Shown here piece by piece: positions 31 to 53,481 of a stretch of DNA of 60,459 nt. How positions within the stretch are numbered: the first letter of the stretch is position 1; the number at the start of each line of letters is the position of its first letter. The translations under genes were made by a program, and so were the position numbers. The stretch spans positions 1-60,459 of the forward strand of contig JANWXY010000022.1 in the NCBI GenBank assembly GCA_025057135.1, read 5' to 3'. The notes below the pieces were generated by a model. The model searched no databases. It was not told the origin of the DNA and saw only the letters and a program-made list of their open reading frames with translations. The stretch comes from Bacteroidia bacterium. Its GTDB lineage: Bacteria > Bacteroidota > Bacteroidia > SpSt-205.

Positions 31-1419
31 TCACAAATGAATAACCTCACCGTAAGCCGCCGCTGCCGCCTCCATAATCGCTTCTGAAAGCGTAGGATGC
101 GGATGAATAGTTTGGACTATGTCATGCCCCGTAGTCTCTAAACGACGAGCAACTACAAGTTCGGATATCATCTCTGTCGCATTCGGACCTAAAATATGGG
201 CTCCCAGCAACTCCCCATACTTAGCGTCAAAAATGAGCTTTACTAATCCCTCATTTTTACCCATCGCAGAAGCTTTGCCTGACGCTGTATAAGGGAACTT
301 CCCTACCTTTATGTCTATACCTCTTTCTCTGGCAGCTTTTTCTGTAAGCCCCACCGATGCAACCTCCGGCTGGCAGTAGGTACAGCTCGGAATCGTAGTA
401 TAGTCTAAGGGCTGCCTATCTATCCCCGCGATTCTCTCCACGCATATGATGCCCTCCATAGATGCTACGTGGGCCAGCGCAGGTGTGGGCAGGATATCTC
501 CGATGGCATACAATCCAGGGACATTTGTGCGATAATATTCATCTACTACTATCCGCCCTTTCTCCATACGAACCCCTAACTCCTCCAAACCAATGCCTTC
601 CGTATTCGGGACCACGCCCACTGCGAGGAGCGCTAAGTCTGCTTCTACTTGAAGCGTTTCTTTGGGAGTTTGGAGGGTAGCCTTTATGCCTTTCTTTGTT
701 TTTTGGAGGTCAGTTACTTGGGTACTGGTGAGTATAGAGAGACCTTTTTTGCGATATATCTTTTCCAACTCCCGGGCAATTTCCTCATCCTCTCGGGGAA
801 GGATATGGGGAAGAGCCTCCACGAGGGTTACCTTCGTGCCAAGCGTATGATAAAAGTAAGAAAACTCCACACCGATGGCCCCCGCTCCGATAACAAGCAT
901 ACTATTAGGCTGAGTAGGCAGGGTCATAGCCTCTCGGTAACCGATAACCATCTTTCCATCTATCTGTATATGAGGAAGGTTTGCAGGGCGTCCGCCTGTG
1001 GCAAGGATAATGTGAGGAGCCTCTATTACTTTCTTACCTCCATCACTCAGCGAAACTTCCACCTTCGGCCCTGGTAGAAGGCGAGCCGTCCCCTTGATGA
1101 CTTCTATCTTATTTTTTCGCATCAAAAACTCCACTCCTCGGCTCATCTTATCTGCCACGCTACGGCTACGGGCTATGATCTTGGGAAAATCTACTTTCGG
1201 CGTCCCGACTTGGAAGCCGTAGCTTTCCGCCGCGAGAAGGTATTCCAACACCTCCGCAGACTTCAGGAGGGCTTTGGTAGGTATGCATCCCCAGTTCAGG
1301 CATACACCACCCAAGTTTTCACGCTCCACAAGCTGTACCGCAAAGCCCAGCTGTGATGCCCGAATAGCAGCCACGTATCCCCCAGGTCCGCTACCGATAA
1401 CTATTAGTCGTTTATCCAT
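31..1419 (-). CDS. lpdA: Dihydrolipoyl dehydrogenase (E3)
   Basis: GSGPGGY FAD motif, GGVCLNWGCIP redox disulfide, GAGAIG NAD motif, C-terminal HPHPTLSE. Start moved to ATG 1419 (MDKRL), 5 nt after a TATCTTTG box. Confidence 0.95.
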   Translation of the reverse strand: MDKRLIVIGSGPGGYVAAIRASQLGFAVQLVERENLGGVCLNWGCIPTKALLKSAEVLEYLLAAESYGFQVGTPKVDFPKIIARSRSVADKMSRGVEFLMRKNKIEVIKGTARLLPGPKVEVSLSDGGKKVIEAPHIILATGGRPANLPHIQIDGKMVIGYREAMTLPTQPNSMLVIGAGAIGVEFSYFYHTLGTKVTLVEALPHILPREDEEIARELEKIYRKKGLSILTSTQVTDLQKTKKGIKATLQTPKETLQVEADLALLAVGVVPNTEGIGLEELGVRMEKGRIVVDEYYRTNVPGLYAIGDILPTPALAHVASMEGIICVERIAGIDRQPLDYTTIPSCTYCQPEVASVGLTEKAARERGIDIKVGKFPYTASGKASAMGKNEGLVKLIFDAKYGELLGAHILGPNATEMISELVVARRLETTGHDIVQTIHPHPTLSEAIMEAAAAAYGEVIHL

Positions 1420-1424
1420 GGGGA

Positions 1425-1492
1425 CAAAGATACCCACAACCCTAAACCGCGCAGATGAAGCACTTGCAAATAGACCTTTTGCTTTATATTTG
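1425..1492. promoter_or_regulatory. Divergent Bacteroidota sigma-A promoters (lpdA on -, TBDR operon on +)
   Basis: TATCTTTG on - strand (1432-1425). TATATTTG on + strand (1485-1492) with TTG at 1464-1466, resembling the -33/-7 consensus. Confidence 0.7.
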
Positions 1493-1513
1493 CTCTCTGC
1501 AAAGGGAAAGTTT

Positions 1514-4500
1514 ATGCTTCGCAAGCTCACTAACTGGCTGATAGCTCTGACAGGGCTTGGATTGGCTTTGGCTCAGCAGGACGCAGGAAAACTGCGCGGT
1601 GTCGTGCGCGATAAAGTCACGCGTGAGCCTCTGAGCTTTGCTACCGTCGTTATCCTCCAGAATGGCGTTGTAAAGGGCGGGACCAATACGAATGAAAACG
1701 GTGAGTATAGTATCGCCCCCGTATCTCCTGGTACATACGACGTACGGGCGAGCTATGCGGGTAAAACCTTTACAATCAGCGGTGTAATAGTAACTGCTAA
1801 CCGTACCATTGTCCTGGACATCAACATGGAATCCAGCGTGCAGACAGAAACTCAGGAGATAGTAGATTACAAAGTGCCCCTCTTTGAGAAAGACGAAACT
1901 GTAACTGGAAAGACAATCACGCTGGAACAGATTCAGAAGATGGGGACCCGAAATATCACCACTTTTTTAGCCACCTCAGCAGGGGTATATCAAGCCGATG
2001 ACGGAAGGGCATTATTTGTTCGAGGGGCGCGTTCCGATGCTACGCAATACTTTGTAGATGGCGTACGGGTAATCGGAGCTCTGGGAATGCCCCAGAAAGG
2101 CATATCTCAACTTTCCATCTATACCGGAGGAATCCCCGCAGAGTTTGGCGACGTGATGGGAGGGGTCGTCCAAATTACTACGGGTGCGCCCAGTGCCTCT
2201 CATACTTTCGGTGGAGAGATACAGTCCAGCCAGTTCACTGACCCTTACAAGTTCAATCTATTTGCGCTCAATGCCTCGGGACCAATCTTTTCCCGTAAAA
2301 CAGATGATGGGCTGAAGATACCTATACTGGGATACGCTGTAAGCGGAGAGTTTCAGCACGAGCGGGATTATGGCTCCCCTTATGGCGGAGTATACAGAGT
2401 CAAATCCGAAGTTTTGGAGGACTTGGAAAGGACACCTTTACAACCATTTGGTCAAGGATCTGCCTTCTTTGTCAATAGGGCCAACTTTCTACGTCCTGAC
2501 CAGCTGGAAAAAGTCCGTTATCGTCAAGGGGCCCCTCTGAGACAAATCCGAGCGAACTTACGGATGGACCTTCGCCTCGGTGAAAATGCATTCCTAAAGT
2601 TTGGATTCAGCGGGGAGCAATCTCGAGTCGTATCTTGGGACCTTTCTCGGGCTCTGCTCGCCTATAAAAACGCCCCAGTTAGTTACAATCGTACCCTCAG
2701 GTCATTTGTACGACTTCAGCAGACCTTTCCAGGAGATACAGGCAGCCTTCTGCGCAACTTTTTCTATACTATTCAGTTCGATTACACTCGGGTAGACGGT
2801 CGTAGTGTAGATGACAGATTCCAACTGAACTGGTTCAGATATGGACATATAGGACGCTTCCAGACCCGATATGCAGAGCTTATAGTACCGACTTTCCAAG
2901 ACAACCTTCCCGTATATCAGTCTGCCGGGTTTGTAGAAAATGAATATCTATTTGACCCTTCAAACAGTTCGCATCCAATCCTGGCTAACTACAACACCTT
3001 CATATACAACTACCTCGCACAGAGCCCTAGAATTTTGTTCAATCCCATCACTCTACGCCCAGAACCCAGCGGGAGAGTGAGAAACTTCATAGACCTCTTG
3101 CAGTTAGGAGGACATGTAAATGGTATTATAGGCGCTCAGGCTTTGATATACAATCTCTACTTAGGTCAGGGCTATCCAGCCGCTTTCGGAGCATCCTTCA
3201 GCAATGCAGACATGTTCCGTGTGACCGGACAAGCGGCGGTGGAGCTCGGACGGCACAATTTGAAAGTTGGGTTTGAGTTTGATCAGCGATATTCTAGGTT
3301 TTACGGAGTCAGCTCCGCTTATCTCTGGCAGCTCATGCGCCTATACGCCAATCGCCACATTCAAGAGCTGGACCGCTCTCAGCCGATCGTCTCAGGAGAT
3401 ACAATTCGCTATCGCCCACTTTATCAGGCGAGCCAGCAAACCTACTTTGACAGAAAAATGCGAGAGAAGTTAGGTCTACCAGTGGATGGGCTAGACTTCA
3501 TAGACCCAGATGCAATGGACCCTGACTTCTTCAATATAAGAATGTTTGATATCAATGACCTCTTCGCTGGAGGAAATCCCGCCGTTTTCTATCAAGGCTA
3601 CACGCCGTGGGGTGAACGGCTCAGACGAGTAGCCCCAGAAAAATTCTTCACAGATAGGGAAAATCGTCCGCAGAATGCTTTTTCACCCACATATGTAGCC
3701 TTCTACGCTCAGGATAAGTTTGAGTTTGATCGCATGTTCTTCAACCTCGGCGTGCGGGTCGACCGGTTTGATGCTAACCTGCCTGTGCTGAAAGATCCTT
3801 ATATCATTCGGCCATTCTACCGAGCCGAAGAAACTGCTCGTATATTGGGTATAACGCTACCACAAGGTGTGGGAGGGGACTGGGTGGCATATGTAGACAA
3901 TGCCCTCAACCCCACCCGAATTCTCGGTTTTCGCAGCGGCAATACATGGTATGACGCAAATGGCAGCCCCACAAGCGCCTTAGCAATCACCAGAGCCTCC
4001 GGTGGGCGAGCCCTTCCGCATCTGAAACAAGACAGCCTTACTTATGAAGCATTCGACGACTACCGCCCTCAGATAAATATCATGCCCCGAATCTCATTCT
4101 CTTTCCCTATATCTGATGAAGCAACCTTTTTTGCTCACTACGACGTGCTCACTCAGCGGCCCCGTGCTGGTCAAGTCGCTCAGTTCGTGGACTGGCTGTT
4201 TATCCTGCAAAATGCCACCGTTTCCCAAGCTAATCCTGCTCTCCGCCCTGAACGCACCATAGACTTTGAGGTGGGCTTCAAACAGCTTTTATCTCAGAAT
4301 ATAGCCCTTTCCGTTTCAGGGTATTACCGAGAGATGCGCGATCTGGTGCAGAGCTTCTTTTTCCTTGGTGCTTATCCTGTGAGTTATACCGCTTTTGAGA
4401 ACTTAGATTTTGCCACGGTCAAAGGAATAAACATAGATATAGATATTCGTCGCATAGGAGTCTTGGAACTGCGATTTGCTTATACTCTCCAATATGCCAG

Positions 4501-11337: not shown

Positions 11338-12466
11338 GGGCTCCAAGCGCTCGAAGCCACGGACTCGCCTCAGCCAAGGGAATCAGTCGGTTATCTTTTT
11401 GGAAAATGTAAATATCCTCTCCCTGAGCGGGAAGATAAGCTAAGTTTTCTGCCCAGCCTTCTATCCAAAACCACTCTTTCCATGGGTGCGCTTGTGGGGG
11501 GAGCTTTTCTATCCACTCCTGATACATCTCAGTGGCTTGAGAGGGCTCCCCCAGAAACCTAACCTTGTAGGGTACACGCCAAAGAAGGGCACGACTGAGC
11601 GCCCTCACAGGTGGATGGATGGAGTCTACCCCTTCGTGAATCCAGCTCCAAACGATACTTTCATCCAGCCTGAGAAAAATATCCAACACTGCGTCAGACA
11701 GCCCCGAGCGTAATCGCCGAACAGCCTCAGGCAAACAATCAAAAGCATCCAATACCGCCCACCACCGCTGCAGAAGCCGCTCCGCCCCCAAGACCCCTTT
11801 GTGAAGATAAACCTGCCAGTACATAAACCGTCGCGTAACGATGAACTTCTCCACGGAATTGAGCCCCTTCTCCTCTATGACCAAGCGATTGTCCGCTACC
11901 GCCATGGTATGAATCAACCGTTCCGTACCGATAAGTCCCTCCTGCACTCCCGTGAAGAAACTGTCTCTGACCAAATAATCCAGCCTATCTACATCTAACT
12001 GACTGATCAGCAGCTCAGAAAGAAAAGGAAACTCATGAGAGCCCCGCCACAGTGCGCGAACCTCAGCTAACTCTCCCACTTCCTTCTCCAACAACGCTAA
12101 AACCTCCTCTCCTAACTGCTCATGCGATAAAGGCACAATCAAACCCTCCAAGCTGTGGGAAAAAGGACCATGCCCAATATCATGCAATAGTGCCCCGAGA
12201 AGCACAGACTCCCATGTATCGGCAGAAATCTGGACACCTTTCCTGGTCAGGATGGTAAGAGCCTCATCCGCCAAATGCATCACCCCTAAGGCATGCGCAA
12301 AACGCGTATGAACCGCCCCGGGATAAACAAAGTATGCCAAGCCAAGCTGGGAGAGGCGTCGCAACCGCTGCACAATAGGACTACTTAAGGCACGGAGTAC
12401 CCGCCCCTCTGGTATCCGAATAAACCCATGGACAGGGTCGTTGATGATTTTAGCGGTGGGCAGCAC
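11276..12466 (-). CDS. HD-domain phosphohydrolase (dNTP triphosphohydrolase/SAMHD1-like)
   Basis: INDPVHG, QRLRRLSQLG, HTRFAH, LLHDIGHGPFSH, LDVDRLDY motifs. Probable GTG start at 12466. Confidence 0.88.
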   Translation of the reverse strand: MLPTAKIINDPVHGFIRIPEGRVLRALSSPIVQRLRRLSQLGLAYFVYPGAVHTRFAHALGVMHLADEALTILTRKGVQISADTWESVLLGALLHDIGHGPFSHSLEGLIVPLSHEQLGEEVLALLEKEVGELAEVRALWRGSHEFPFLSELLISQLDVDRLDYLVRDSFFTGVQEGLIGTERLIHTMAVADNRLVIEEKGLNSVEKFIVTRRFMYWQVYLHKGVLGAERLLQRWWAVLDAFDCLPEAVRRLRSGLSDAVLDIFLRLDESIVWSWIHEGVDSIHPPVRALSRALLWRVPYKVRFLGEPSQATEMYQEWIEKLPPQAHPWKEWFWIEGWAENLAYLPAQGEDIYIFQKDNRLIPLAEASPWLRALGAPMRRFFVGAIPAALLESLLR

Positions 12467-12470
12467 GCCC

Positions 12471-12491
12471 AGAAGGTACAAACTATCTTTG
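12471..12491. promoter_or_regulatory. Back-to-back -7 boxes (HD gene / acyl-CoA synthetase)
   Basis: TACCTTCT on - strand (12478-12471) and TATCTTTG on + strand (12484-12491), each 4 nt from a start codon. Confidence 0.6.
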
Positions 12492-12495
12492 CTTC

Positions 12496-14583
12496 ATGCA
12501 GATGGAAAATCCTACCTCAGATCAGATACAAGCCTGGTGTGCCGCATGTCGCCACTCTACCCTCTCAGGGGAAGATTTTTCTCGGCACATACGCCTCTAT
12601 GAGCAGATATTCGGGAAAGAGCCCATACCTCCATTCTTTCCTCTGTGGTATCCTCAGTACATGGGAAATGTCCAACAAACCAACCTATACCAGACTATTC
12701 AGCTATGGCGGGAAAAGCTTGTCAAAAATACAAGCGTCGCGCCCAGCGGCGACCTGCCAGAAGAGCTTTATGCAGCTTTTCATCGGTGGAGCGTAGAACA
12801 TCGGGCAGATTTCTGGCGATATGTGATATTTGACCGCCTGAACATCCCTTTTCAGCACCCCCCCGAGACCATCTTGAGTTTCCCTAAAGGAAACATTGAG
12901 CAGCCGAAGTGGCTAGATGGAGCCGCATGGAATGTCATAGAAGTGCTTCTGAGACAGCCCCCTGAGCATACCGCTCTAATCTACGAGCGAGAAAATGGAG
13001 AAAGTCAAAAATGGAACTACGGGGACCTCATCACATATATAAAGCGCACTGCCGGCGCTCTATACGCACAAGGTCTCAGAGAAGGAGACCGAATAGCCCT
13101 ATGCCTGCCTATGCGTCCAGAAGCGATCTTTTTATATCTCGGGGCATTATATGCTGGCATTTCGGTGGCGACAATTCCAGATAGTCTATCAGGTGAGGAA
13201 ATCTCCGCTCGGCTTCGCATAGCCAAGCCTAAGCTGCTATTTATACAAGATGGGCTGCATCGAGAAGGAAAATTTATCCCGCTATACGAACGGCTACAAG
13301 CACACCCGCTCCCCCCTACCATCGTCCTCCCCGGTAAAGAAGCCATACAAACACGCCTGCGCAACAATGCATCCACATGGATGCAGTTCATTTCAGATAG
13401 TCAATCACTTTCCCAGCCCTACTATGGACCTTCCGATAAGGAAATAGGCGTTCTTTTCTCCTCAGGTACGACCGCCGAACCGAAGGCTATCCCCTGGACC
13501 CAGCTCACCGCTATCAAGGCCCTGGCAGACGCCTATTTTTATCATGACGTCCACCCTACCGACACTATCACATGGCATACCAATCTCGGCTGGATGATGG
13601 GGCCTTGGCTGCTTTTCGCAGGTTTCGGGCATGGAGCTACCATAGCATTGTATGAAGGCCCTCCGACAAGCCCCAGCTATTGCAAGTTTATAGAACGGCA
13701 AAGCATCACCATTTTAGGCGTTGTTCCCTCTCTCGTGAGACGCTGGATAGAGACTGACGCATGGAAAGAAGCCGACTGGTCACAGATTAGGTTATTTAGC
13801 TCTACTGGAGAGGCTTCCAATCCATGGCACATGTGGCGCCTCATGGCAAAAGCAAACTATAAACCCATCATAGAATACTGCGGCGGCACCGAAATCGGCG
13901 GAGGATACATTACCAGCACCCTTATCCATCCAAATGCACCGAGCCAGTTTTGTGTTCCTGCTTTGGGGATAGACTTTATCCTTTTGAATGAAATGAACCA
14001 GCCAGACACCGAAGGTGAGCTTTTTCTCCTCCCCCCTTCCATAGGCTTGTCTCAAACCCTCCTGAATGCCGACCATCACAAAGTCTATTACCAAGACACC
14101 CCACCTATTCAAGAAGGGTGGAAAGGGGCTTCTGATGCGCCTATATCGCTCACTTACGAAGGCGTGCGCATGCATTTACGCAGACATGGAGACTACATGC
14201 GACGGTTACCCTCAGGACGATGGAGCTCCGGAGGGCGCGCCGATGATGCGATGAATCTCGGAGGCATAAAGGTATCCGCTGCAGAAATTGAGCGGGTGGT
14301 AGCACAAGTTCCTGGCGTTGGCGAGGCCGCCGCCATCGCCGTACCCCCGCCAGAAGGCGGACCAGAACGGCTTATTCTTTATATCGTCCAGGCGCAGGGC
14401 ACCAGCCGAGAGCCCGAAGAATGGCAGACCCTCCTTTCCCAGCAGATTCGCGAAAAGCTCAGTCCCCTTTTTCATCTCCACGCTGTGGAAATCGTCTCTG
14501 AGCTCCCTCGCACCGCCTCTAACAAGGTAATGCGCAGACTTCTGCGCACACAGTACTTAGAAGCTATTCAGAAGGGCAAATAG
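12496..14583 (+). CDS. AMP-dependent acyl-CoA synthetase (AAE17/AAE18-like)
   Basis: LFSSGTTAEPK P-loop, TNLGWMMGPW, STGE, EYCGGTE, GRADD, LPRTASNKVMRR. Confidence 0.88.
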   Translation: MQMENPTSDQIQAWCAACRHSTLSGEDFSRHIRLYEQIFGKEPIPPFFPLWYPQYMGNVQQTNLYQTIQLWREKLVKNTSVAPSGDLPEELYAAFHRWSVEHRADFWRYVIFDRLNIPFQHPPETILSFPKGNIEQPKWLDGAAWNVIEVLLRQPPEHTALIYERENGESQKWNYGDLITYIKRTAGALYAQGLREGDRIALCLPMRPEAIFLYLGALYAGISVATIPDSLSGEEISARLRIAKPKLLFIQDGLHREGKFIPLYERLQAHPLPPTIVLPGKEAIQTRLRNNASTWMQFISDSQSLSQPYYGPSDKEIGVLFSSGTTAEPKAIPWTQLTAIKALADAYFYHDVHPTDTITWHTNLGWMMGPWLLFAGFGHGATIALYEGPPTSPSYCKFIERQSITILGVVPSLVRRWIETDAWKEADWSQIRLFSSTGEASNPWHMWRLMAKANYKPIIEYCGGTEIGGGYITSTLIHPNAPSQFCVPALGIDFILLNEMNQPDTEGELFLLPPSIGLSQTLLNADHHKVYYQDTPPIQEGWKGASDAPISLTYEGVRMHLRRHGDYMRRLPSGRWSSGGRADDAMNLGGIKVSAAEIERVVAQVPGVGEAAAIAVPPPEGGPERLILYIVQAQGTSREPEEWQTLLSQQIREKLSPLFHLHAVEIVSELPRTASNKVMRRLLRTQYLEAIQKGK

Positions 14584-14724
14584 CCAAAGTCAAGCAAAGC
14601 AGACTGCACAGGCTCAATTTCGTCAGGCAGAATCTGCGCGTCAAAGTATCCTTGACCGCGACCAGCTCTGATGCCCTCTACCAGTAGGCGATCTTCTCTG
14701 GACGCGAAATCTTACACTTGTAGT

Positions 14725-16085: not shown

Positions 16086-16090
16086 CAGTG

Positions 16091-36641: not shown

Positions 36642-36656
36642 TGCCACAAAGGTATA

Positions 36657-39401: not shown

Positions 39402-39818
39402 TCATGAACGGCGATTTTTATTGGGAAGGGGAGGCACGCTTTCAGGCTTTCGCAGGGCTTCTTCACCAGTCCAACAGCGCACCTCTAACTTAGCCCCCTT
39501 CTGGCACTCTAAGTGCCGAGCCCTGATTTCTCCTTGTATGCAAGCGGTGGGCGCTATTTCTACTATATCATCTGCGATGATTTCACCTGTAAAATGTCCG
39601 GCCACATGAACCTGCCCAGCATGAATCGTCCCGGTGACTTCGGCAGAAGGTGCAAGCACAAGGCGACCCTCTACTCGGAGGTTGCCGTGGTAGGTTCCTT
39701 CAATGCGCAAGTTACCCGGTGTGTGAAACTCTCCCCTGGTTTCGCTACCTTCACCAAGCAAGGAGAGGGCTTTTTCATAAGCTCCGTTGGATGAAGAGTT
39801 TTTTCTCCAAAAACTCAC
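39402..39818 (-). CDS. Bactofilin (polymer-forming cytoskeletal protein)
   Basis: LRIEG...G.L.V.G.L.L...A.V.G.I.A..V.V.G beta-helix repeats; GTG start after a TATATTTG box. Confidence 0.88.
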   Translation of the reverse strand: MSFWRKNSSSNGAYEKALSLLGEGSETRGEFHTPGNLRIEGTYHGNLRVEGRLVLAPSAEVTGTIHAGQVHVAGHFTGEIIADDIVEIAPTACIQGEIRARHLECQKGAKLEVRCWTGEEALRKPESVPPLPNKNRRS

Positions 39819-39915
39819 GCAGCAAATATACTGATACTACACCGTTTCACACACTGTAAATGACGAGCTATCCTACCGCTTTTAGGCATCCCTGGGGAGC
39901 TAAGCGATTAGTGCT

Positions 39916-41594: not shown

Positions 41595-42310
41595 AGCTCA
41601 TCCGAATCTATATCCTCCAGGTCGATTTCCTCTTCATCCCCCAGCCCCTCAGGTAGGTCTATTTGAATATCATCATCATCTATGCCCAAATCTTCATCTT
41701 CTACGGAGGGCAGAGGGTCCTGTGTGAGCAGCCTTTCCGTGGGTATCTCTATGTCGTCTAACTTAGGGTCAGAAAAACCTATGTCTTCGGAACCAGTAGC
41801 CTTAGAAGTAGTTGGGGTTTTAGATTGTCCTGCGGTGGAAATCGGCTGCTGCCCTGTAGAGGGCTTTTTACTCGAGGATGTCGCTACTTGTTGGCTTTGA
41901 GCGGCTCTTAGAGCACTTGGAGTAGGAGCCTGAGCGTCTGTAATATACACTCGGGCCAGGGCTAAGACTGGACGAGATTGACGAGGTAAGCATACAAAAA
42001 CAAAGTAAATGCCAGAATTGCGGAAAATCACTCGCCCCCTGTAAAGGTTTCGGCTGGCTTTGGAGCGATATAGAATAAATACCGCAGCTGGCTTTTTTGC
42101 CGAACGCACAACCGCCCAGAGTGTATCAGCAGCCGGAGCCGATGCAAACCTCGCCTCTAACCAAAGAGACAAGGGAGAAGCCGTCTGTAACTGAAACACC
42201 GTATCTGCGCCAACAAGCTGACCTTGCTGATTATATCCCTTTCCTAATCGGAGCTTACCCTGAGCATAAACGGCGACTAGCAGGCAATACATTAGGGGAA
42301 GCCAGCGCAT
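41591..42310 (-). CDS. Secreted hypothetical protein with acidic C-terminal tail
   Basis: Signal peptide, beta-rich domain, S/T/Q linker, D/E-rich tail; preceded by a TATATTTG box and coupled to the DUF58 gene. Confidence 0.7.
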   Translation of the reverse strand: MRWLPLMYCLLVAVYAQGKLRLGKGYNQQGQLVGADTVFQLQTASPLSLWLEARFASAPAADTLWAVVRSAKKPAAVFILYRSKASRNLYRGRVIFRNSGIYFVFVCLPRQSRPVLALARVYITDAQAPTPSALRAAQSQQVATSSSKKPSTGQQPISTAGQSKTPTTSKATGSEDIGFSDPKLDDIEIPTERLLTQDPLPSVEDEDLGIDDDDIQIDLPEGLGDEEEIDLEDIDSDEL

Positions 42311-42388
42311 TCCGTCAAATATACAGACAACTCCTCACTTCCACTCTGACAGGTGCTATTGAAACAACCACTCACAGGTAGGAGCGAT

Positions 42389-43165: not shown

Positions 43166-43998
43166 AGCTTACTCAGGAATGTTAGAAGGTCACCGTAAAC
43201 TTTTTCCCGAAAGGTCTCATGCAGAGGCTCATGATAGGAGCCTTCATAGGAAATGAGCTGCTTTTTCGGGGCAGGAAGGTGATGGAAAAACCGCTGTGTT
43301 GCTTCTGAGTCGCATACCGGATCCTCCTTAGGAAGGAGGAATAGATATGCACCTTCGGTCAATTTGGGTAAATCTTTCCACAGCTCCACCTGGGCGCGCT
43401 GAATCGCAGCAAACCAGCCCGCTGTCGCTACACGAAACACCAAGGGGTCTTGGGCATAGGCCAGAGCTTCCGCCTCATCATGGGTGAGATGCTTCGGCTC
43501 CAGTCCAGAGGGCAAACTCAAAGTGGGAAAAAAACGCGCGGCAATCTGTCCAAGGGTCTTTTTCCAAGCAGGAACTTGAAGACGCAGCTGAATCAGCGGA
43601 GCACTGACTATCGTCGCAGCAGGCGACCATATTTCTGGATACTTCTGCCGATATCGCAAAACAATAAGCCCTCCGAGGGAGTGCCCAAAAAGAACGGTAG
43701 GTTCAGAGAATTTCCCCTTCCAGTGGGTTCGTACAGCAGTCAAATCATACAGATACTCTTCCATATCGGTGATGAAGCCGCGCCTCCCTGTAGAGCGTCC
43801 GTGACCGCGCAGGTCCCAGACGAGATTACCCCAGCCCTGAGCAGACAAATACCGAATGACGGCTTCGTAGCGTCCACTGTGTTCTGCGTACCCGTGTACC
43901 CAGAGAATGCTGCCTCTGAGCTTACCAGTAGGTGGATACCAAATAGTGTATAGCCTTTCACCCTGGTACCCTGCGACCGTATGGATGTGCATTTCCAC
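43162..43998 (-). CDS. Alpha/beta hydrolase (lysophospholipase/monoacylglycerol lipase-like)
   Basis: HGYAEHSGRY, DLRGHG, GHSLG nucleophile, catalytic D and H (EDPV, YHE). Start GTG 43998 or ATG 43992. Confidence 0.9.
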   Translation of the reverse strand: MEMHIHTVAGYQGERLYTIWYPPTGKLRGSILWVHGYAEHSGRYEAVIRYLSAQGWGNLVWDLRGHGRSTGRRGFITDMEEYLYDLTAVRTHWKGKFSEPTVLFGHSLGGLIVLRYRQKYPEIWSPAATIVSAPLIQLRLQVPAWKKTLGQIAARFFPTLSLPSGLEPKHLTHDEAEALAYAQDPLVFRVATAGWFAAIQRAQVELWKDLPKLTEGAYLFLLPKEDPVCDSEATQRFFHHLPAPKKQLISYEGSYHEPLHETFREKVYGDLLTFLSKL

Positions 43999-44018
43999 TG
44001 GACAAAGGTAGAAACTCC

Positions 44019-45245: not shown

Positions 45246-46513
45246 CCTTTAGCGATATCCGTACGATAGTGACGACTTTCAAAGGGTAGCTTCTCAAGCC
45301 CTGCATAAGCGCGTTGGCGGGCGACTTCTAAAGTTTCGCCGAGCCCCACTACGGTGTAAGCTCGCCCCCCAGTAGTTCGGAGCTTGCCGCTTTCATCCGC
45401 CTCTACCCCAGCCCAATATACATATTCATTCGCTTCTAAGCGGGCGCCTCCTTCTTCGGTAGAAGGAAGCGCAATCAGCTGTCCTTTTTGAGGAGACTCA
45501 GGATAGCCCCGGGTAGCAGCGACCACACCGACACTAAAGCCTGGCCGCAAGCGAAGCTTAAGTTCGCTCAGCTTTTGAATGGTGTAATAGTATAATATCT
45601 CCTCCATAGAGTTTTCCACCAAAGGGAGGATAAGCTGGGCCTCTGGGTCACCCAATCGGACGTTGTACTCCAGCACATAAGGCTCTTCCTCCACCTTCAT
45701 CAATCCGATAAATAAAAATCCACGATAAGGCGTCCCTGCTTGACGAAGGGCATACAGAGTGGGCTCTATAACCTTTTCGCGGACGGATTCTATCCACTGG
45801 GAAGTATCAGCGGGTGCATAGCCTCCCATCCCACCAGTATTGGGGCCTTGGTCGCCATCGCCTAAGCGCTTATAATCGCGGGCAGCAGGGAAAATCACAT
45901 ACCCTTTCCCATCAGACAGCAAGATAACCGAGCGTTCCTCTCCGAGGAGAAACTCTTCTATGACGACAGTATGTCCAGCTGAGCCAAAACGAACACCCGA
46001 AAAACACTCTCTCAGAAAACTAAGAGCCTCCTCATTATTTTGGGCAACTAAGACGCCTTTTCCGCCTGCTAAACCACTGGCTTTCACCACGATGGGATAA
46101 GCCGCTCCTTGCAAATAAGCTTCTGCATCCGCTTGTCTCATGCGCTCAAAAACCACTGCAGAGGCGGTAGGCACACCTATCGTTTCCATAAACTGCTTGG
46201 CTTTGGCCTTGCTACTCTCTAAAAAAGCCAGCTTTTGAGGTGGAGCGATCACTTTGGCTACATCGTGGAGATCATCATACACTCCCCGCGCAATCGGGGC
46301 CTCAGGACCGACAATCACATAGTCAATCTTATTCTGGCGAACAAAGTCTCTCAGACGAGAGAAATCCGTTTCTTCTATGGGAACCCGCCGAATGGGCTCC
46401 TTCATCCCTGCATTTCCCGGAGCTACATACACCTCCATGTTTTTGGACAATAAAGCCTTATGAGCGATGGCATGCTCCCGAGCCCCTCGTCCCACCACCA
46501 AAAGCCGCACCAT
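45242..46513 (-). CDS. purD: Phosphoribosylamine--glycine ligase
   Basis: GAREHA, APGN, VGPEAP, GLAGGKGV, DYKR..DGDQGPNTGGMG, EYNVRLGDPE. Confidence 0.95.
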   Translation of the reverse strand: MVRLLVVGRGAREHAIAHKALLSKNMEVYVAPGNAGMKEPIRRVPIEETDFSRLRDFVRQNKIDYVIVGPEAPIARGVYDDLHDVAKVIAPPQKLAFLESSKAKAKQFMETIGVPTASAVVFERMRQADAEAYLQGAAYPIVVKASGLAGGKGVLVAQNNEEALSFLRECFSGVRFGSAGHTVVIEEFLLGEERSVILLSDGKGYVIFPAARDYKRLGDGDQGPNTGGMGGYAPADTSQWIESVREKVIEPTLYALRQAGTPYRGFLFIGLMKVEEEPYVLEYNVRLGDPEAQLILPLVENSMEEILYYYTIQKLSELKLRLRPGFSVGVVAATRGYPESPQKGQLIALPSTEEGGARLEANEYVYWAGVEADESGKLRTTGGRAYTVVGLGETLEVARQRAYAGLEKLPFESRHYRTDIAKG

Positions 46514-46561
46514 GCAGCAAAAATACAGGCTCTACCTTATCCGATAAGGAGCTCAGAACCA

Positions 46562-47228: not shown

Positions 47229-48668
47229 TCAGTGCTCCAGAGCTTTGTCTAAGAAGTCTTCTACAAGCTTTTCTACGGAGCCTTGTTTGGGCAGGGCAGC
47301 CATCATACCATACAAGGCCGCTGTGCGACGAGGCGGCTGATTTGACTGAGCCGTGCGACTGATGAGCCTCGCTACACCTCTTATCCACCTCTCAGGCAGG
47401 ACTGCCAAACCTGTGCGCAAAAGAGCCCTGCCCGCCCGTCTGCGCCAGCCACTTCTCTGCATTCGTGATTTCTCCTCCTCCACAGCAGCGGCCAAATCTT
47501 GTATGAAAGTTTCCACTACTCGCGCATGCCCAGCTGTAACCGTCAGATGTAGGCTTGCTGGATTCTGCTGGCGGTCTAAAAACCACCCCCTCTGAGCAAG
47601 TGCATCCCCTATCCGGTAAATATCCAGCGGAGCATGAGCGGCAATGGCGAGGATAGTTGCGTGGGGGTTACCGACGATGTAAAGCTCTGGTATTTTTGAA
47701 ACAGCTGAACGAATGCGCTGAGTAGTTTCCCAAGCCAAACGCGCGGCTTCCCTATAACCTGACTCTCCGAGATATTGAAGGACGGACCATGCGGCAGCGA
47801 TAGCCCCAGCCGAACGCGTCCCAGAAAAAGTCGCCGAGGCATAGATTCCCCCAGACCACCCGCTATAAATGAAAAACTGATACCGGCGAAGGCTCCTTTC
47901 CCGATACAGCACGACGGAGGCACCCTTAGGCGTATAGCCGTATTTATGCAGGTCCGCAGATATGCTGGTAACGCCCTCTACACGAAAATCGTAACTAGGC
48001 AGCTCAACGCCATTTTTCTCCAAAAAGGGCAAAATGAATCCCCCTACACAGGCATCCACATGACACAGCAGGTGATACTTCTGAGCAAGAGCGGCAATAT
48101 CACTGATAGGGTCTATCACTCCATGTGGATAAGAGGGAGCGGAGCCAATGAGGAGAATAGTCTGTTCAGAAATCGCCGCCTCCATAGCGCGTACATCCAC
48201 TTCCCCAGTAGAAGTTACTGGGACATGCACTACCTTGAGCCCAAGGTAGTGAGCCGCCTTGTCAAAAGCAGGATGAGCGGATGCAGGAAGGATGATTTCA
48301 GGCTGATAGAGGTGTGGCTTATATCTGCGAGCATAATCCCGGGCGGTCTTGACAGCGAGAAAGATGCTCTCCGTACCCCCGCTGGTGAGTGTGCCAGCCG
48401 CACTGGCAGGCGCATGAAGAATAGACTTGACGATGCCGAGAATTTCATTTTCCATTCGGCGCAAACTCGGAAATGCCATCGGATTGAGCGCGTTTTCGGA
48501 GATATAGTAGGCATAAGCCTGCTGAGCCAGACGAAGAAGCTCTTCGCTGTGATAATATACCAGACTCCACAGCCGACTGCTACTGCTATCAGTGTCCTGA
48601 GATTTTCGGGATAGTAGATCATTTAGGATTTCCTCGGCAGGGCGTCCAGCAGGTGGGAGCATGTACAT
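47229..48668 (-). CDS. PLP-dependent group II decarboxylase-fold enzyme, sphingosine-1-phosphate lyase-like
   Basis: NALNP..FP, TSGGTESI, SAHPAFDKAA, HVDACVGG, SADLHKYG (PLP Lys), C-terminal AALYGM...FLD. Confidence 0.82.
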   Translation of the reverse strand: MYMLPPAGRPAEEILNDLLSRKSQDTDSSSSRLWSLVYYHSEELLRLAQQAYAYYISENALNPMAFPSLRRMENEILGIVKSILHAPASAAGTLTSGGTESIFLAVKTARDYARRYKPHLYQPEIILPASAHPAFDKAAHYLGLKVVHVPVTSTGEVDVRAMEAAISEQTILLIGSAPSYPHGVIDPISDIAALAQKYHLLCHVDACVGGFILPFLEKNGVELPSYDFRVEGVTSISADLHKYGYTPKGASVVLYRERSLRRYQFFIYSGWSGGIYASATFSGTRSAGAIAAAWSVLQYLGESGYREAARLAWETTQRIRSAVSKIPELYIVGNPHATILAIAAHAPLDIYRIGDALAQRGWFLDRQQNPASLHLTVTAGHARVVETFIQDLAAAVEEEKSRMQRSGWRRRAGRALLRTGLAVLPERWIRGVARLISRTAQSNQPPRRTAALYGMMAALPKQGSVEKLVEDFLDKALEH

Positions 48669-48672
48669 ACAC

Positions 48673-48699
48673 CTAAGGTACAAAATATGCGTACTTTTG
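48673..48699. promoter_or_regulatory. Back-to-back -7 boxes (lyase gene / rbfA)
   Basis: TACCTTAG on - strand (48680-48673) and TACTTTTG on + strand (48692-48699), 4 and 3 nt from their ATGs. Confidence 0.6.
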
Positions 48700-48702
48700 A
48701 GC

Positions 48703-49092
48703 ATGGCACGCCCACCGAATCTTCGTCAGCAGCGCTTCGCCGCCGAGGTAAAACGATTGCTGTCTGATATCGTCCGAGAAGCGGTAGAGGAGCTCCCCGA
48801 ACTCTCAGGCTGCCTCGTGGAGGTGAGCGACATCCGAGTAACAGCCGACCTACAACAGGTACGGGCCTATCTACTCGTATCGCCCTCGGACAAACAGAAC
48901 TTCGTCGTACGCCTTCTCAACCAACACCAGAAGACCATTCGGTATCGGCTCTCCCAGCAAATTCGCAATCAGGTCAAGGTCATGCCGACCGTACAGTTTT
49001 TTGCGGACGAAGTAGAACTCCGGGCACGCCGTGTGGAAGAGATTCTAAAAAACCTCCCTCCACCTGCCAAAGACAGCCCCTCGGAAACCTGA
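48703..49092 (+). CDS. rbfA: Ribosome-binding factor A
   Basis: RQQR.A..V...LS.I, V.V..IRVTADL..VR.Y, IR..LS..IR.Q....P.V.F..D. Confidence 0.88.
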   Translation: MARPPNLRQQRFAAEVKRLLSDIVREAVEELPELSGCLVEVSDIRVTADLQQVRAYLLVSPSDKQNFVVRLLNQHQKTIRYRLSQQIRNQVKVMPTVQFFADEVELRARRVEEILKNLPPPAKDSPSET

Positions 49093-49100: not shown

Positions 49101-50294
49101 ATGGGCGCTCTGATTTGGCGATATCTTTTCCGTAGCCCGCGTCCTATTATTCGCTGGCTGCTGCGACTCAGCTTAATAGGCTTGTCCCTTTCTGCGTGGG
49201 CATGGATCGTCGTCGCCTCTGTATTCAATGGATTTAGTGACTTTTTGGAGGAGGTTTTTCAACGGGCGGATCCTCAGGTGAGGCTAATAGGCCGAGGGCT
49301 GTCTGACTCGCTGCGTTCAGCGATTGAGAAATATCCAGAAGTCTTAGCCGCCTCTGGCATTTATGAGCGCATAGCCCTTCTACGATATGGTGGACGCCAG
49401 GCTGCTGTTCGCCTACGGCTCGTAGATGAAAAATATCCTCAGGTCAGCCATATAGGCTCACAACTCCTCTGGGGAGAAACCTTTCCTCTACGTCCCAAAG
49501 CCATACTAATGGGCGCAGGCATAGCCGCTCAGTTAGCCGTCGCAGACGCAGAAGAGATGCCTTTGTGGATATATGTCATTCCCTCGGGGAAAAAGATAGC
49601 TTTCGTAGGATTAGAAGGACTTCAGAAGCAGAAAGGGGTGATTCAAGGTATATTTAGCGTTCAGAAAGAGTACGACGAGTCTTGGGTTATCGCGCGGCAA
49701 GCCGACTGGACGAATCTCCGTTTGTCTGACTACGAAGTCATAGAGTTGAGATTGCGCCCCGGCTATAGCATAGAGCGTTTCATCAAACACCTCAAATCTG
49801 CCCTGCCTTCGCAGATTCATATTCAGGACCCTCGGCAGCAACATGAAGGATTATACAAAGTCCTATCTCAGGAAAAAGTCCTCGCTCGGATAGGATTGTT
49901 TTTTTTACTGATACTGACTCTGACAGGCGTTATTAGCACACTTTCGGCTTTTTTATTGCTCGGACGCAGGGACTGGGCTCTATATCAAGCCTTGGGGGCA
50001 TCTCAGAGTTGGGTAGAGCGTTTTCTACGGCACCTAAATCTTGCTTTGCTTGCCACAGCTATCAGTTCAGGACTGCTTTTAGGAACCGCCACGGTCATCC
50101 TTCAAGACCAATATCACCTTGTCAAGTTACGAGGGGGGGAAGGTTTTTTGATTGAACATTTTCCCGTCAAACTCGCTGTAGATGACTACTTGTGGATGAT
50201 AGGGCTCGTAGCTGGGGCATTCATGTTACTATCCGCCTATACTAAATATCAACTGCGTCAAATAGATTTGCGGTCATCTTTACAAGGAGACTGA
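49101..50294 (+). CDS. LolC/LolE-like ABC permease
   Basis: SVFNGF after TM1, periplasmic domain, three C-terminal TMs with ALGAS; rbfA-permease order as expected in Bacteroidota. Confidence 0.75.
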   Translation: MGALIWRYLFRSPRPIIRWLLRLSLIGLSLSAWAWIVVASVFNGFSDFLEEVFQRADPQVRLIGRGLSDSLRSAIEKYPEVLAASGIYERIALLRYGGRQAAVRLRLVDEKYPQVSHIGSQLLWGETFPLRPKAILMGAGIAAQLAVADAEEMPLWIYVIPSGKKIAFVGLEGLQKQKGVIQGIFSVQKEYDESWVIARQADWTNLRLSDYEVIELRLRPGYSIERFIKHLKSALPSQIHIQDPRQQHEGLYKVLSQEKVLARIGLFFLLILTLTGVISTLSAFLLLGRRDWALYQALGASQSWVERFLRHLNLALLATAISSGLLLGTATVILQDQYHLVKLRGGEGFLIEHFPVKLAVDDYLWMIGLVAGAFMLLSAYTKYQLRQIDLRSSLQGD

Positions 50295-50300
50295 AACGCC

Positions 50301-52604
50301 ATGCGGCAGTTATTTTTGCTGACTTGTATAGCCCTTATCTGGGCTCAGACACCTGATACCGTACGCAGGCCAAAGATAGGACTTGTACTATCTGGCGGCG
50401 GAGCAAGAGGTGCTGCGCATGTGGGAGTCATTCAAGCGCTTGAAGAGGCTGGAATACCCATAGACTATATCACTGGGACATCTATGGGCGCAATGGTGGG
50501 AGGATTTTATGCGGCAGGATACTCACCAGCTGAGATGCTTCTCCTGATGATGCGGGAAAATCGCCAGTGGCTCAGTCCTGGTCCATTTTTCCGAGAGTAT
50601 GCCTACTACTCCCCTGCCCGGTCGTATGACATTACGAGCTGGGAAATTCCGCTGGAGTTTTTATCTAAGGGGGATTTACCCTTACCAGAGCAGGTCGTAT
50701 CTGACTTTGAGATTAACCTTGGACTGAATGCTAAGCTGGCTGGAGTAAGCCTGGCGAGGAAGGGAAACTTTGATAGCCTGCTCGTACCCTACCGAGCCAT
50801 AGGAGCAGACCTCTACAGACGCCGCCCGGTTATCTTTCGCAGTGGGAGTTTGCCCTTAGCCGTGAGGGTTTCTATCTCAGTTCCGATATTTTTCTCACCG
50901 CTGACCACCCGAGAATACACTAATCTGGTAGATGGCGGTGTGTATGATAACTTCCCCGTAGAGCCTATGAAAAGGGAGTTTGCGCCTGACTACATTATCG
51001 GCGTACATGTGGGCTCTCCTCCGATGACCTTGGAAGAGTTTCGTCAAAAGGGATACTATTATCGTCTTTTTTCGCACTTAGCCGACCAGAGCTCTTGGCA
51101 GAAACTCCCCGAACGAAGCTTCTTCATCCAGCCGGACTTAGGTGAGATGAGCAGCACAGACTTTTCTACGGGCGCCCTATCCTTCGCTGTGCGACGCGGC
51201 TATGAAGCGACCTTAGCCTGCATAGAAGAGTTGAGAGAGCAGATCGGTCCCTGGCGAGCTGACTCGGCCGCATTAGCCCGGCACCGACAGCAGTTGCGTC
51301 AGTACAGAAACCGTCCGATTCCTATTAGCACTGTGAGTTTTCATCCAGCCCATCCTGCCCAGAAGTTTTTCTATCGGCAAGTGCTGGGCATAAAGCCAGG
51401 TGAGACTCTAACCATAGATAGGCTGCGGCGTCGCCTGTTCATGCTCAGGAGAGCCTCTTCATTTTACAGTCTTTTCCCAGAGTTTATCCCAGACTCTCAG
51501 TTTGCGAACAAGTCAAACCTCACTGTGCTGGTTCGCCCTCGTGGTGATGCATTTCTGAGGGTGGGGTTAGGGGTATTCTCTCCGTCTGGGTATGCTATTC
51601 AGGTGGGAGCTCGCATAGAGAAAGTCTGGTGGGCGGGATGGGAAGGAGAAGCTTTACTCACCCAAGGTTCCTTCGCTCAAGGCGTGGAGTTTCGGTTACG
51701 CATTCGTCCGCCTTTACCCTTAGACATCCGCTTATTCGGTGAGACCCAAATCAATCGGTTTATTTACCAGCAACTCGGCAGTTATTGGCTTCCACTTCCC
51801 AGACAAGCCGGTGTATTCACAAGTACAGACTTCTTCGGAACCGGCATTCAGTTTGCTATAAAGCGATTCGAAGCCCAGATTGGTGTAGGCCGTTATTCCA
51901 TATTAGATAGCTACAACGAATCTGGCGTAGAGACTGAGGTACGGTCACTGACAAACTATTTACGCCTACTCGTAGATACCGAAGATGATCGCCAATATCC
52001 CACCGCAGGCAGTAGAATTTATGCGGCTATTTACCTCAATCATGCCCTTGAAAAGCCCTATTTTGCTCAGGCACCGTACGCACAAGCCCAGCACTTTTGG
52101 CCTCAGGCTGTATTGCGCTACCGTCAGAGCTTGTCTGTCTTAAGAGCCTTTAGTATGGGCTTCCGAATAGAGGGAGGACTTTCGCTTCAGGTGCCTTATG
52201 CTGATTCGGTTGCTGCCATCTTAGCCTCCCCCAGCTTTTATCCTTTTCCAGAAAGTGCTACCCTGTACTTGCCCCAACTGTATCAAAGGGGCTTCGCCGC
52301 TCTGGGAGGACATCTAACCATTCGTCTCAGACAGAAGCTCTTTCTCAGAGCAGAGGGATATATTCATCAGGCATTTCTGAACATGGAGTTTCCGAGCATA
52401 GAACAGCCCCAGGGAAAGCTTATTCTTCCCACGACTCTGAAAGATATCCCCCCTATCCAGCGTTACCTCATGGCAGGTATTTTCTACCGAACATTCATAG
52501 GTCCTCTCGGAGCGTTTATTTCCTATTATGACAGACAGCCACAGCCCCTGAGGATATTTCTTCATCTTGGCTACACGAGATTTTTAGAGCGCCCATGGCA
52601 GTAA
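50301..52604 (+). CDS. Patatin-like phospholipase with C-terminal outer-membrane barrel (PlpD/type Vd-like)
   Basis: Signal peptide, LSGGGARG, GTSMG, DGG; C-terminal amphipathic beta strands (YRTFIGP...FLHLGY). Confidence 0.85.
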   Translation: MRQLFLLTCIALIWAQTPDTVRRPKIGLVLSGGGARGAAHVGVIQALEEAGIPIDYITGTSMGAMVGGFYAAGYSPAEMLLLMMRENRQWLSPGPFFREYAYYSPARSYDITSWEIPLEFLSKGDLPLPEQVVSDFEINLGLNAKLAGVSLARKGNFDSLLVPYRAIGADLYRRRPVIFRSGSLPLAVRVSISVPIFFSPLTTREYTNLVDGGVYDNFPVEPMKREFAPDYIIGVHVGSPPMTLEEFRQKGYYYRLFSHLADQSSWQKLPERSFFIQPDLGEMSSTDFSTGALSFAVRRGYEATLACIEELREQIGPWRADSAALARHRQQLRQYRNRPIPISTVSFHPAHPAQKFFYRQVLGIKPGETLTIDRLRRRLFMLRRASSFYSLFPEFIPDSQFANKSNLTVLVRPRGDAFLRVGLGVFSPSGYAIQVGARIEKVWWAGWEGEALLTQGSFAQGVEFRLRIRPPLPLDIRLFGETQINRFIYQQLGSYWLPLPRQAGVFTSTDFFGTGIQFAIKRFEAQIGVGRYSILDSYNESGVETEVRSLTNYLRLLVDTEDDRQYPTAGSRIYAAIYLNHALEKPYFAQAPYAQAQHFWPQAVLRYRQSLSVLRAFSMGFRIEGGLSLQVPYADSVAAILASPSFYPFPESATLYLPQLYQRGFAALGGHLTIRLRQKLFLRAEGYIHQAFLNMEFPSIEQPQGKLILPTTLKDIPPIQRYLMAGIFYRTFIGPLGAFISYYDRQPQPLRIFLHLGYTRFLERPWQ

Positions 52605-52626
52605 AAAATCATCTACCTTTGCGAAG

Positions 52627-53481
52627 ATGAAAGCCATATTGCACCTTACAGACTTCTCTGAAGTCGCTCAAAATGCGTATGCTTACGCAATAGCCCTGGC
52701 TAAAAAGTATGGCGCAGAGCTTCATATAGCCCATATATATGACCGCCCATATGCCAGTATTGCTTATCAAGGAGGGCTCTCTGCAATAGTCGATGCAGAG
52801 ATGGACTCAAAAATCCGCAGAGAGCTCATCAAACATTTAGAAAACTACGCTGCTTCCACTTCAACTGATGGCGTACGGGTCTTACTCCACCTTTGGGGAG
52901 ACCAAACAGTCTGGCGACCCGACCAATACATAGATAAGGCGCCTAATACTGGCTTAATCGTGATGGGCACTCGCGGCGCTACAAGCCTATGGCATGGTGG
53001 CCTCTTCGGAACGAATACAGCTCGGCTGATTCGGCACAGCCCTGTACCAGTACTCGCCATTCATCCGAAAAACTCGTATTCAGACTATCAGAAAGTTCTC
53101 CTACCAATAGACATTTTTGACGATTCCGCCATCTATCTCATCCAATCCGCAGTAGATTTCCTGCATCCATGGAAGGCAATGAAAGTCGTTCTGCTGGTGA
53201 TAAATACACCCTATGTCTTCTATGACACACCATCAATAGACAAGTTCTTGGCAGAGGTCAAAAATACTCTCCGGCACCCGAATATGGAACTTCGGGTATA
53301 TAACGACATCTCCGTAGAAGAAGGCCTGCGACAAGCCATGGAGGCTGAAAAAGCTGACTTACTCGTGATGGGAACTCACGCCCGCAAGGGGCTGGCCCAG
53401 CTTCTTTTTGGCAGCATAACCGAAAATGTGGCGCAACATTTACAATATCCCCTGCTGGTATTTCCTCCCAAGCAAAGCTAA
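52627..53481 (+). CDS. Universal stress protein (tandem USP domains)
   Basis: ILHLTDFS, LIVMGTRG...FGTNT, LLVMGTHARKG...FGSITE. Confidence 0.92.
   Translation: MKAILHLTDFSEVAQNAYAYAIALAKKYGAELHIAHIYDRPYASIAYQGGLSAIVDAEMDSKIRRELIKHLENYAASTSTDGVRVLLHLWGDQTVWRPDQYIDKAPNTGLIVMGTRGATSLWHGGLFGTNTARLIRHSPVPVLAIHPKNSYSDYQKVLLPIDIFDDSAIYLIQSAVDFLHPWKAMKVVLLVINTPYVFYDTPSIDKFLAEVKNTLRHPNMELRVYNDISVEEGLRQAMEAEKADLLVMGTHARKGLAQLLFGSITENVAQHLQYPLLVFPPKQS

Follow-up and report, generated by a model that had tools for sequence, protein, structure and literature searches.

Promoter boxes set against start codons in a family of Bacteroidia, a predicted case of leaderless-dominant transcription

Genes in contig JANWXY010000022.1 of the Bacteroidia bacterium assembly GCA_025057135.1 (60,459 nucleotides (nt), the whole stretch analysed, called the window below) are often preceded, a few nucleotides upstream, by the octamer TAnnTTTG. 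The arrangement raises the question whether messenger RNAs of this organism begin at the start codon itself, and how widespread such leaderless transcripts are. The explanation regarded as very probable as a whole is that TAnnTTTG acts as the -7 element recognised by the housekeeping sigma factor of Bacteroidota, with its last G separated by 4 nt (less often 5–8 nt) from the start codon. Transcription would begin on the A or G of ATG or GTG, or 1–4 nt before it, and the resulting mRNAs would have the start codon at the 5' end and lack a leader for ribosome binding. The 5'-terminal AUG or GUG, we infer, would be recognised directly by ribosomes, without Shine-Dalgarno (SD) contact, and later genes of an operon would in most cases be reached via overlapping or very short junctions. 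The family to which this genome belongs, called f1, is a clear family-wide case, as predicted from sequence, of a known organisation, leaderless-dominant transcription.

The window corresponds to contig C45 in an assembly of 2.08 Mb (94 contigs, 50.2% G+C, 98% completeness), labelled G000. The order includes 18 species genomes, sorted into family f1 (genus g1, 14 genomes, and genus g10, 3 genomes) and family f2 (one genome, G013). Wider comparisons cover a class draw of 401 genomes from 84 families and a phylum draw of 251 genomes, ~189 of which belong to other classes, ~590 Bacteroidota in all; G189 and G108, flagged as unpublished, serve in the class draw as background only, and no claim depends on them. 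In the following, box denotes TAnnTTTG, and gap the number of nucleotides between the last G of the box and the first base of the start codon. Genes are called box-adjacent if an exact box is found 2–9 nt before a start, and net shares are observed fractions minus the rate at control gaps. Genes were called by a home-made procedure, in which stop-to-stop open frames of at least 90 codons were scored by self-trained dicodon statistics and overlaps were resolved; 1663 of 4178 frames were kept. Results refer to G000 unless another genome is named.

Box-to-start geometry and competing readings

Fifty boxes are found on the two strands of the window. Dinucleotide shuffles (n = 100) contain 28.1 boxes on average (standard deviation 5.7, maximum 43), and none of the 100 reached 50. 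Genome-wide, an exact box lies 2–9 nt before a start in 455 of the 1663 called genes, with a sharp mode at 4 nt. The gap histogram was built from stop-to-stop open frames and every in-frame ATG, with no start selected beforehand. For the 1589 boxes of the genome, the in-frame ATGs of called genes at gaps 0 to 12 number 1, 2, 3, 18, 149, 74, 45, 41, 30, 16, 13, 20 and 8, over a background of ~5.9 per gap. None of nine permuted or altered control motifs produces a peak, and only TAnnTTTA rises slightly. The peak at gap 4, and the enrichment over background across gaps 3–8, extend to the whole genome the spacing that the original prediction had read from the window.

Sites of the type TANNTTTGNNNNATG number 188, versus 18 for the reversed pattern. 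As 157 of the 188 open an open reading frame (ORF) of at least 100 codons, and the stop upstream of box-adjacent starts is on median 12 codons away, the ATGs that follow the box are taken as start codons. Start calls blind to the motif, made by cumulative coding score, agree with the box in 332 of the 455 box-adjacent genes, and fall within 10 codons of it in 400. For lpdA, purD, rbfA and pdhA, alignments to NCBIfam models extend to the N-terminus set by the proposed start. For 158 of the 455 genes, the start next to the box differs from the first ATG in the frame; the claim that the box corrects ORF starts thus holds beyond the window.

Start codons at gap 4 are ATG (149), GTG (62) and TTG (1), over backgrounds of 5.9, 6.2 and 6.7 per gap, respectively; purine-initial codons alone are used at this position. 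Mycobacteria likewise are known to use only AUG and GUG at the 5' end. A pyrimidine precedes the start in 74% of 211 gap-4 cases, and at gap 7, 82% of the cases have a purine as fifth spacer base. This pattern at spacer positions 4 and 5 points to a transcription start site (TSS) fixed relative to the box, with leaders of 0–4 nt. In passages of the studies cited, the TSS of Flavobacterium johnsoniae promoters is located 4–5 nt after the box, with consensus TAHHTTTG (PMC6847099), and the box of F. psychrophilum at -12 to -5 (PMC9723704). The gap mode of 4 nt equals this spacing, so that +1 would fall on the first base of the start codon. Also in favour, SD-like tetramers are scarce ahead of starts, whatever the gene class (4–9%, versus 13–17% in a control window).

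Boxes with one mismatch are enriched at the same place. TAnnTTCG is the most enriched (71 sites versus 16.5 expected), followed by TTnnTTTG (53 versus 28) and CAnnTTTG (33 versus 18). G is rare (4–6%) at both n positions of the box. An AT-rich patch (66–67% A+T) lies 6–7 nt upstream of the box, near -18. A TTTG abutting the box (TTTGTAnnTTTG) was noticed in 21 of 453 box-adjacent promoters, versus ~3 per offset elsewhere, and may be an extended upstream element. T directly precedes the start in 53% of the non-box-adjacent genes that follow another gene by 0–30 nt, and in 41–62% of the starts at box gaps 6–9; this may be a context preference of leadered or re-initiating starts.

The distribution of boxes follows operon structure. 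Where the upstream neighbour is divergent, 220 of 448 genes carry an exact box, compared with 197 of 521 same-strand genes spaced by at least 11 nt, and only 25 of 628 genes which overlap, or lie within 10 nt behind, a same-strand gene (net fraction 3–4%). Being sparse at operon-internal genes, the box marks transcription units rather than cistrons. The net share reaches 42% (exact box) to 51% (one mismatch allowed) among genes with a divergent upstream neighbour, and 23–28%, by the same two counts, among all genes. The remaining divergent genes keep a faint profile in register (A 41% at -11, T 51% at -8, G 36% at -5), and the net shares are therefore lower bounds. Our own count for the window gives about 25 transcription-unit heads, of which 18 are box-adjacent, variants included. 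According to the original prediction, most transcription units start at or next to the start codon. The computational tests all fit this claim; the estimate supports about half or more of the units, not nearly all. Support for its companion, that downstream genes rely on stop/start coupling, is indirect: of 1137 same-strand junctions, as defined by our start calls, 227 are overlaps of -4 or -1, and 628 are at most 10 nt apart.

Several points weigh against leaderless transcription of these genes. The TSS position is deduced from the spacing published for other Bacteroidota, rather than from RNA 5' ends. Gaps of 6–8 nt imply leaders of 2–4 nt, so that part of the set would be only near-leaderless. 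Percentages are approximate, as the gene set consists of home-made calls limited to open frames of at least 90 codons. No positional enrichment of a -33 TTTG (or TTG) was found 20–50 nt upstream of the boxes; F. johnsoniae likewise shows little -33 element, in the part of the study cited (PMC6847099), so the element is weak even in an accepted example of this promoter type. About half of the obligate operon-first genes have no recognisable box at the start. Among 465 operon-first candidates lacking a box-adjacent start, an exact box within 250 nt occurs for just 100, and for 43 of the 100 it sits 10–30 nt from the start.

The same boxless half feeds the alternative that survives best, though it is judged improbable, namely that the box promoters are real but minor, and expression relies mainly on upstream promoters which yield leadered mRNAs. 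Promoters of another kind must exist for the boxless genes. Against this, a second exact box occurs within 250 nt upstream in only 22 of 448 box-adjacent genes, versus 9.1% expected from box density. In addition, both members are box-adjacent in 52 of 224 divergent gene pairs, with start codons as close as 26–34 nt, a spacing at which any upstream promoter would have to lie within the neighbouring gene. The juxtaposition of box and start has also been conserved in evolution: in G023, a genome of the sister genus, a box precedes 53 of 67 orthologues of box-adjacent genes, at a median protein identity of 61%; for orthologues of other genes the figure is 11 of 167.

A second alternative, far less probable, is that UAnnUUUG functions in the RNA, as a non-SD ribosome-binding site on leadered transcripts. 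Precedents are at hand, since Bacteroidota, which lack SD sequences, use other cues near the start (PMC6847099, in part), and passages of the GeneMarkS-2 study describe non-SD motifs at short distances in most Bacteroidetes (PMC6028130). A translation signal, however, would not be nearly missing before operon-internal genes, nor be identical to the -7 promoter consensus of the phylum; the exclusion of TTG at gap 4 and the pyrimidine before the start fit transcription initiation, not ribosome binding. Further evidence is provided by tRNA genes, which are independent of translation and of gene calls. An exact box lies 3–22 nt before the mature 5' end in 30 of 43 tRNA genes, and in 28 of these at 3–11 nt. 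Nine tRNAs found 82–128 nt after a box are later members of tandem arrays; four have no box, and two of the four are third in an array. Because the box precedes tRNA genes at the same short distance, it acts in transcription, not in translation. Mature tRNA 5' ends 3–11 nt after the box also lend indirect support to a TSS 4–5 nt downstream of it. Five tRNAs with gaps of 3–4 nt may be made without any 5' leader.

Counted by transcription unit, 28 of about 32 tRNA units are preceded by a box at 3–11 nt; examples, all outside the window, are C10:29678-29750, C35:52611-52683 and C60:104-177. Since some tRNA boxes are only 3–4 nt upstream, loss of RNase P was considered, and rejected, as RNase P RNA scores 196.8 bits, above the cut-off.

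An origin of the pattern in base composition, repeats or start-codon choice has a negligible probability: starts do not come from curated annotation, but the histogram counts every in-frame ATG, control motifs and reversed patterns are flat, box-adjacent starts lie close to upstream stops, and the family models confirm the N-termini.

Relatives and machinery

Box-adjacent starts are conserved throughout the family. All 17 f1 genomes have 137–223 gap-4 sites, versus 2–23 control sites. The histogram of G023 is the same as that of G000, with 31 gap-4 sites in 400 kb. Single loci tell the same: purD retains box, 5-nt gap and ATG in two related metagenome-assembled genomes (MAGs), although the upstream sequence diverges. 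In the sister family f2, G013 has 55 sites at gap 4 versus 41 control sites, and 357 at gaps 5–8 versus 165. These are whole-genome counts, used because the gap-4 count of the G013 contig sample is biased upward, contigs having been chosen from a gap-4 list. The preferred spacing seems shifted by 1–4 nt between the two families, and three sampled G013 tRNAs have boxes at 7–11 nt.

Most genomes of the class draw have observed-to-control ratios of 1–2. By reading of the class-draw table, only family f41, which belongs to another order of Bacteroidia, approaches f1 in excess per Mb. Sites in f41 number 357 versus 75 control sites in G056 (2.9 Mb), 284 versus 80 in G099, and 306 versus 97 in G135. 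The G056 histogram peaks at gaps 4–7 (16, 13, 7 and 6 sites in 242 kb), and the whole genome has 700 sites at gaps 5–8 versus 326; the G+C content of the sample is 35%. G056 orthologues of box-adjacent G000 genes are not preferentially boxed (2 of 14, versus 6 of 30 for other genes), hence the gene sets differ between f1 and f41, and f41 looks like an independent origin of box-adjacent starts. Families f65, f54, f53, f30 and f15 are intermediate. None of the ~189 genomes of other classes in the phylum draw exceeds roughly 25 excess sites per Mb. A typical genome used as control, G298 (complete, 3.7 Mb), has no gap peak, and its tRNA boxes sit 14–63 nt upstream. The view that this lineage is unusually leaderless-dominated therefore stands relative to the ~590 Bacteroidota genomes and to the species in which TSSs have been mapped; it fails as a claim of uniqueness, since f41 is as rich or richer. 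The excess at 5–8 nt in f2, together with the unrelated, AT-rich f41 and its different gene set, suggests that a leaderless-dominant switch may have arisen more than once.

A single RpoD-like ORF was identified (open frame of 297 amino acids (aa); RpoD_Cterm 258.7 bits, below the cut-off of 354), and its short length would fit a primary sigma factor of the Bacteroidota type, which lacks region 1.1. No 16S rRNA was found in the G000 assembly, and the complete genome G008, of the same genus, was used instead. Its 16S rRNA ends in ACCUCCUUUCU, and CCUCC is kept; loss of the anti-SD as a correlate of the trait was accordingly rejected. The 3' end of the G008 gene (G008:C1:792383-793887) reads GGATTACCTCCTTTCT, with T where G298 has C (GGATCACC); the anti-SD core is retained. 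Loss of ribosomal protein bS1 was also rejected, as near-full-length rpsA matches (~490–575 bits) are present in G000, G008, G023, G056 and G298.

The f1 genomes are small (1.4–2.3 Mb), with a coding density of ~92% from genes of at least 90 codons alone. F(IVYWREL), the fraction of these residues in long ORFs, is 0.428 in G000, 0.434 in G023 and 0.387 in G056. By the formula attributed to Zeldovich et al. 2007, values of 0.428–0.434 reportedly correspond to about 66–72 C, and 0.387 to about 28 C. The amino-acid composition of f1 proteins suggests thermophily. As a sole driver of the trait, thermophily was rejected as insufficient, because the equally box-rich G056 has a mesophile-like composition. 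We lean slightly towards the view that this is an order-level branch of small-genome, thermophile-like Bacteroidia, in which promoters would be compressed against every functional 5' end, leaderless AUG/GUG initiation would be the main route, and most pre-tRNA leaders would measure 0–7 nt.

Sites in the window

The box-to-start sites examined in the window are listed in Table 1. Fourteen exact boxes named in the original prediction lie each at the gap given there (3–7 nt), before an in-frame start which opens an ORF of 129–695 codons. The four near-variants are likewise in place, the weakest, TACCTTCT, having two mismatches and being the least certain call of the set. The four exceptions with short leaders are borne out, and one more was added. 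NCBIfam confirms lpdA, pdhA, purD, rbfA, a leucyl aminopeptidase, an aldehyde dehydrogenase, a transporter of the MFS type, and CoA-ligase-like, UbiB-like and decarboxylase-like proteins.

Table 1. Boxes and start codons in the window. Gene names in quotation marks are putative labels of the original prediction, and other names outside the set confirmed by NCBIfam are likewise its labels.
Gene or product	Box	Gap (nt)	Start	Position (strand)	Remarks
lpdA	TATCTTTG	5	ATG	1417..1432 (-)	TIGR01350, residues 4-461 vs model 3-460 of 461
Acyl/acetoacetate-CoA ligase-like	TATCTTTG	4	ATG	12484..12498 (+)	
pdhA	TATCTTTG	4	ATG	16091..16105 (+)	TIGR03182, residues 15-328 vs model 2-315 of 315
UbiB/ABC1-like	TACCTTTG	7	ATG	20155..20172 (+)	
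"Lipoprotein", 469 aa	TATTTTTG	6	ATG	27092..27108 (-)	No family match
"DUF4476", 415 aa	TACTTTTG	5	ATG	27159..27174 (+)	No NCBIfam match
Leucyl aminopeptidase (pepA)	TAACTTTG	6	ATG	30979..30995 (+)	
Aldehyde dehydrogenase	TACCTTTG	5	ATG	36639..36654 (-)	NF050084, 789.5 bits, cut-off 730
"Bactofilin", 138 aa	TATATTTG	4	GTG	39816..39830 (-)	
Gene 42310, 239 aa	TATATTTG	5	ATG	42308..42323 (-)	
Alpha/beta-hydrolase-like	TACCTTTG	4	GTG	43996..44010 (-)	
purD	TATTTTTG	4	ATG	46511..46525 (-)	TIGR00877, residues 3-421 vs model 2-420 of 425
rbfA	TACTTTTG	3	ATG	48692..48705 (+)	TIGR00082, residues 7-118 vs model 5-112 of 115
USP-like	TACCTTTG	5	ATG	52614..52629 (+)	
"CDGSH", 78 aa	TACACTTG	4	ATG 14725	14713..14727 (+)	Variant box
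MFS transporter	TAACTTCG	7	ATG 22712	22710..22727 (-)	Variant box
PLP-decarboxylase-like ("lyase")	TACCTTAG	4	ATG 48668	48666..48680 (-)	Variant box
"HD", 396 aa	TACCTTCT	4	GTG 12466	12464..12478 (-)	Weak variant box
"TonB-dependent receptor", 1210 codons	TATATTTG	21	ATG 1514	1485..1516 (+)	Leadered exception
Gene 16085	TACTTTTG	21	GTG 16085	16083..16114 (-)	Leadered exception
Gene 37523	TAACTTTG	14	ATG 37523	37521..37545 (-)	Short-leader exception
Gene 30914, 820 aa	TAAACTTG	29	ATG 30914	30912..30951 (-)	Short-leader exception; one-mismatch box
Gene 50301, 767 aa	TAGATTTG	30	ATG 50301	50263..50303 (+)	Short-leader case added here

The 469-aa gene (27094, minus strand) and the 415-aa gene (27172, plus strand) form a divergent pair. 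At 16083-16114 two promoters interlock within 24 bp: the minus-strand box of gene 16085 (16107-16114) sits within the first codons of the divergent pdhA, and the box of pdhA (16091-16098) falls in the 21-nt leader of gene 16085. An ORF of >2270 codons (53602-60459, minus strand) extends past the window end, and no box is found near its candidate start, GTG 60414.

Comparison with known systems

Bacteroidota are the textbook bacteria which retain the anti-SD and yet do not use SD sequences. In the parts of the TSS studies cited, carried out in Bacteroides thetaiotaomicron, F. psychrophilum and F. johnsoniae, leaderless mRNAs are a small minority, and cannot account for SD-less initiation (PMC7366714, PMC9723704, PMC6847099). 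About 3.7% of the 5' untranslated regions of B. thetaiotaomicron are shorter than 10 nt (PMC7366714), 5.5% of F. psychrophilum transcripts are leaderless (PMC9723704), and leaders exceed 10 nt in 87% of the cases in F. johnsoniae (PMC6847099); 35–36 leaderless transcripts are reported in the portion of the Segatella copri study cited (bioRxiv 10.1101/2024.04.05.588293). Computational surveys, as quoted from passages of the papers, give further figures. Zheng et al. 2011 detected leaderless genes in one of 37 Bacteroidetes/Chlorobi genomes, at 2.4% (PMC3160421), and GeneMarkS-2 assigned 408 of 450 Bacteroidetes/Chlorobi genomes to the non-SD leadered group B (PMC6028130). In its Supplemental Table S4, 7 of 436 Bacteroidetes are placed in the leaderless group C, with averages of 59.9% of operon-first genes and 55.7% of all genes. 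The seven are not named in the PMC6028130 supplement or the passages searched, and their membership in f1 or f41 cannot be read there. A full-text literature search found no paper which describes a leaderless-dominant Bacteroidota lineage in its text.

Until now, then, only an unnamed handful of Bacteroidota genomes had been predicted to be leaderless-rich, and the species studied by experiment lack the trait. The phylum would also hold leaderless-dominant lineages, namely f1, where leaderless transcription is predicted for about half of the units, and at least one other family. In f1 MAGs the box can serve to predict promoters at single-base resolution and to fix gene starts, which gene finders built around group B Bacteroidetes models may misplace. 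The family also makes leaderless initiation by Bacteroidota ribosomes accessible to experiment. If the switch occurred repeatedly inside an SD-less phylum, these lineages would amount to a natural experiment on start-codon choice by SD-independent ribosomes.

The closest precedents are the seven group C Bacteroidetes, which like f1 are leaderless-rich genomes by computational prediction; the GeneMarkS-2 model relied on a generic 6-nt motif, the present analysis on the TAnnTTTG box. Group C at large includes Actinobacteria, such as Mycobacterium tuberculosis, and Deinococcus-Thermus, in which an element of the -10 type is similarly found at a fixed short distance before operon-first, not internal, genes. 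Leaderless operons account for 25–50% in group C, and for 167 of 262 genes in Deinococcus deserti, in the passages cited (PMC6028130). The share in G000, predicted here from box position (net 42–51%, above 25%), is similar. Differences are also evident. Group C uses a Pribnow box of the TATAAT type, G000 the Bacteroidota box; unlike group C, the Bacteroidota are a phylum without an SD-led alternative for leadered genes, and the same promoter compression extends in G000 to tRNA genes.

The promoters themselves resemble those recognised by sigma-ABfr in B. fragilis/B. thetaiotaomicron, F. johnsoniae, F. psychrophilum and S. copri. The -7 consensus is the same, at -12 to -5; a -33 element that is weak or absent and an AT-rich patch near -18 are common to G000 and F. 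johnsoniae. A retained anti-SD (from the same-genus 16S rRNA) is a further likeness, and the short RpoD-like ORF may be another. What sets the systems apart is the position of the box relative to the gene. In mapped Bacteroidota leaders are the rule, and 3.7–13% of transcripts are leaderless or have short leaders, whereas in the f1 genome the box abuts the start in a net 42–51% of operon-first genes.

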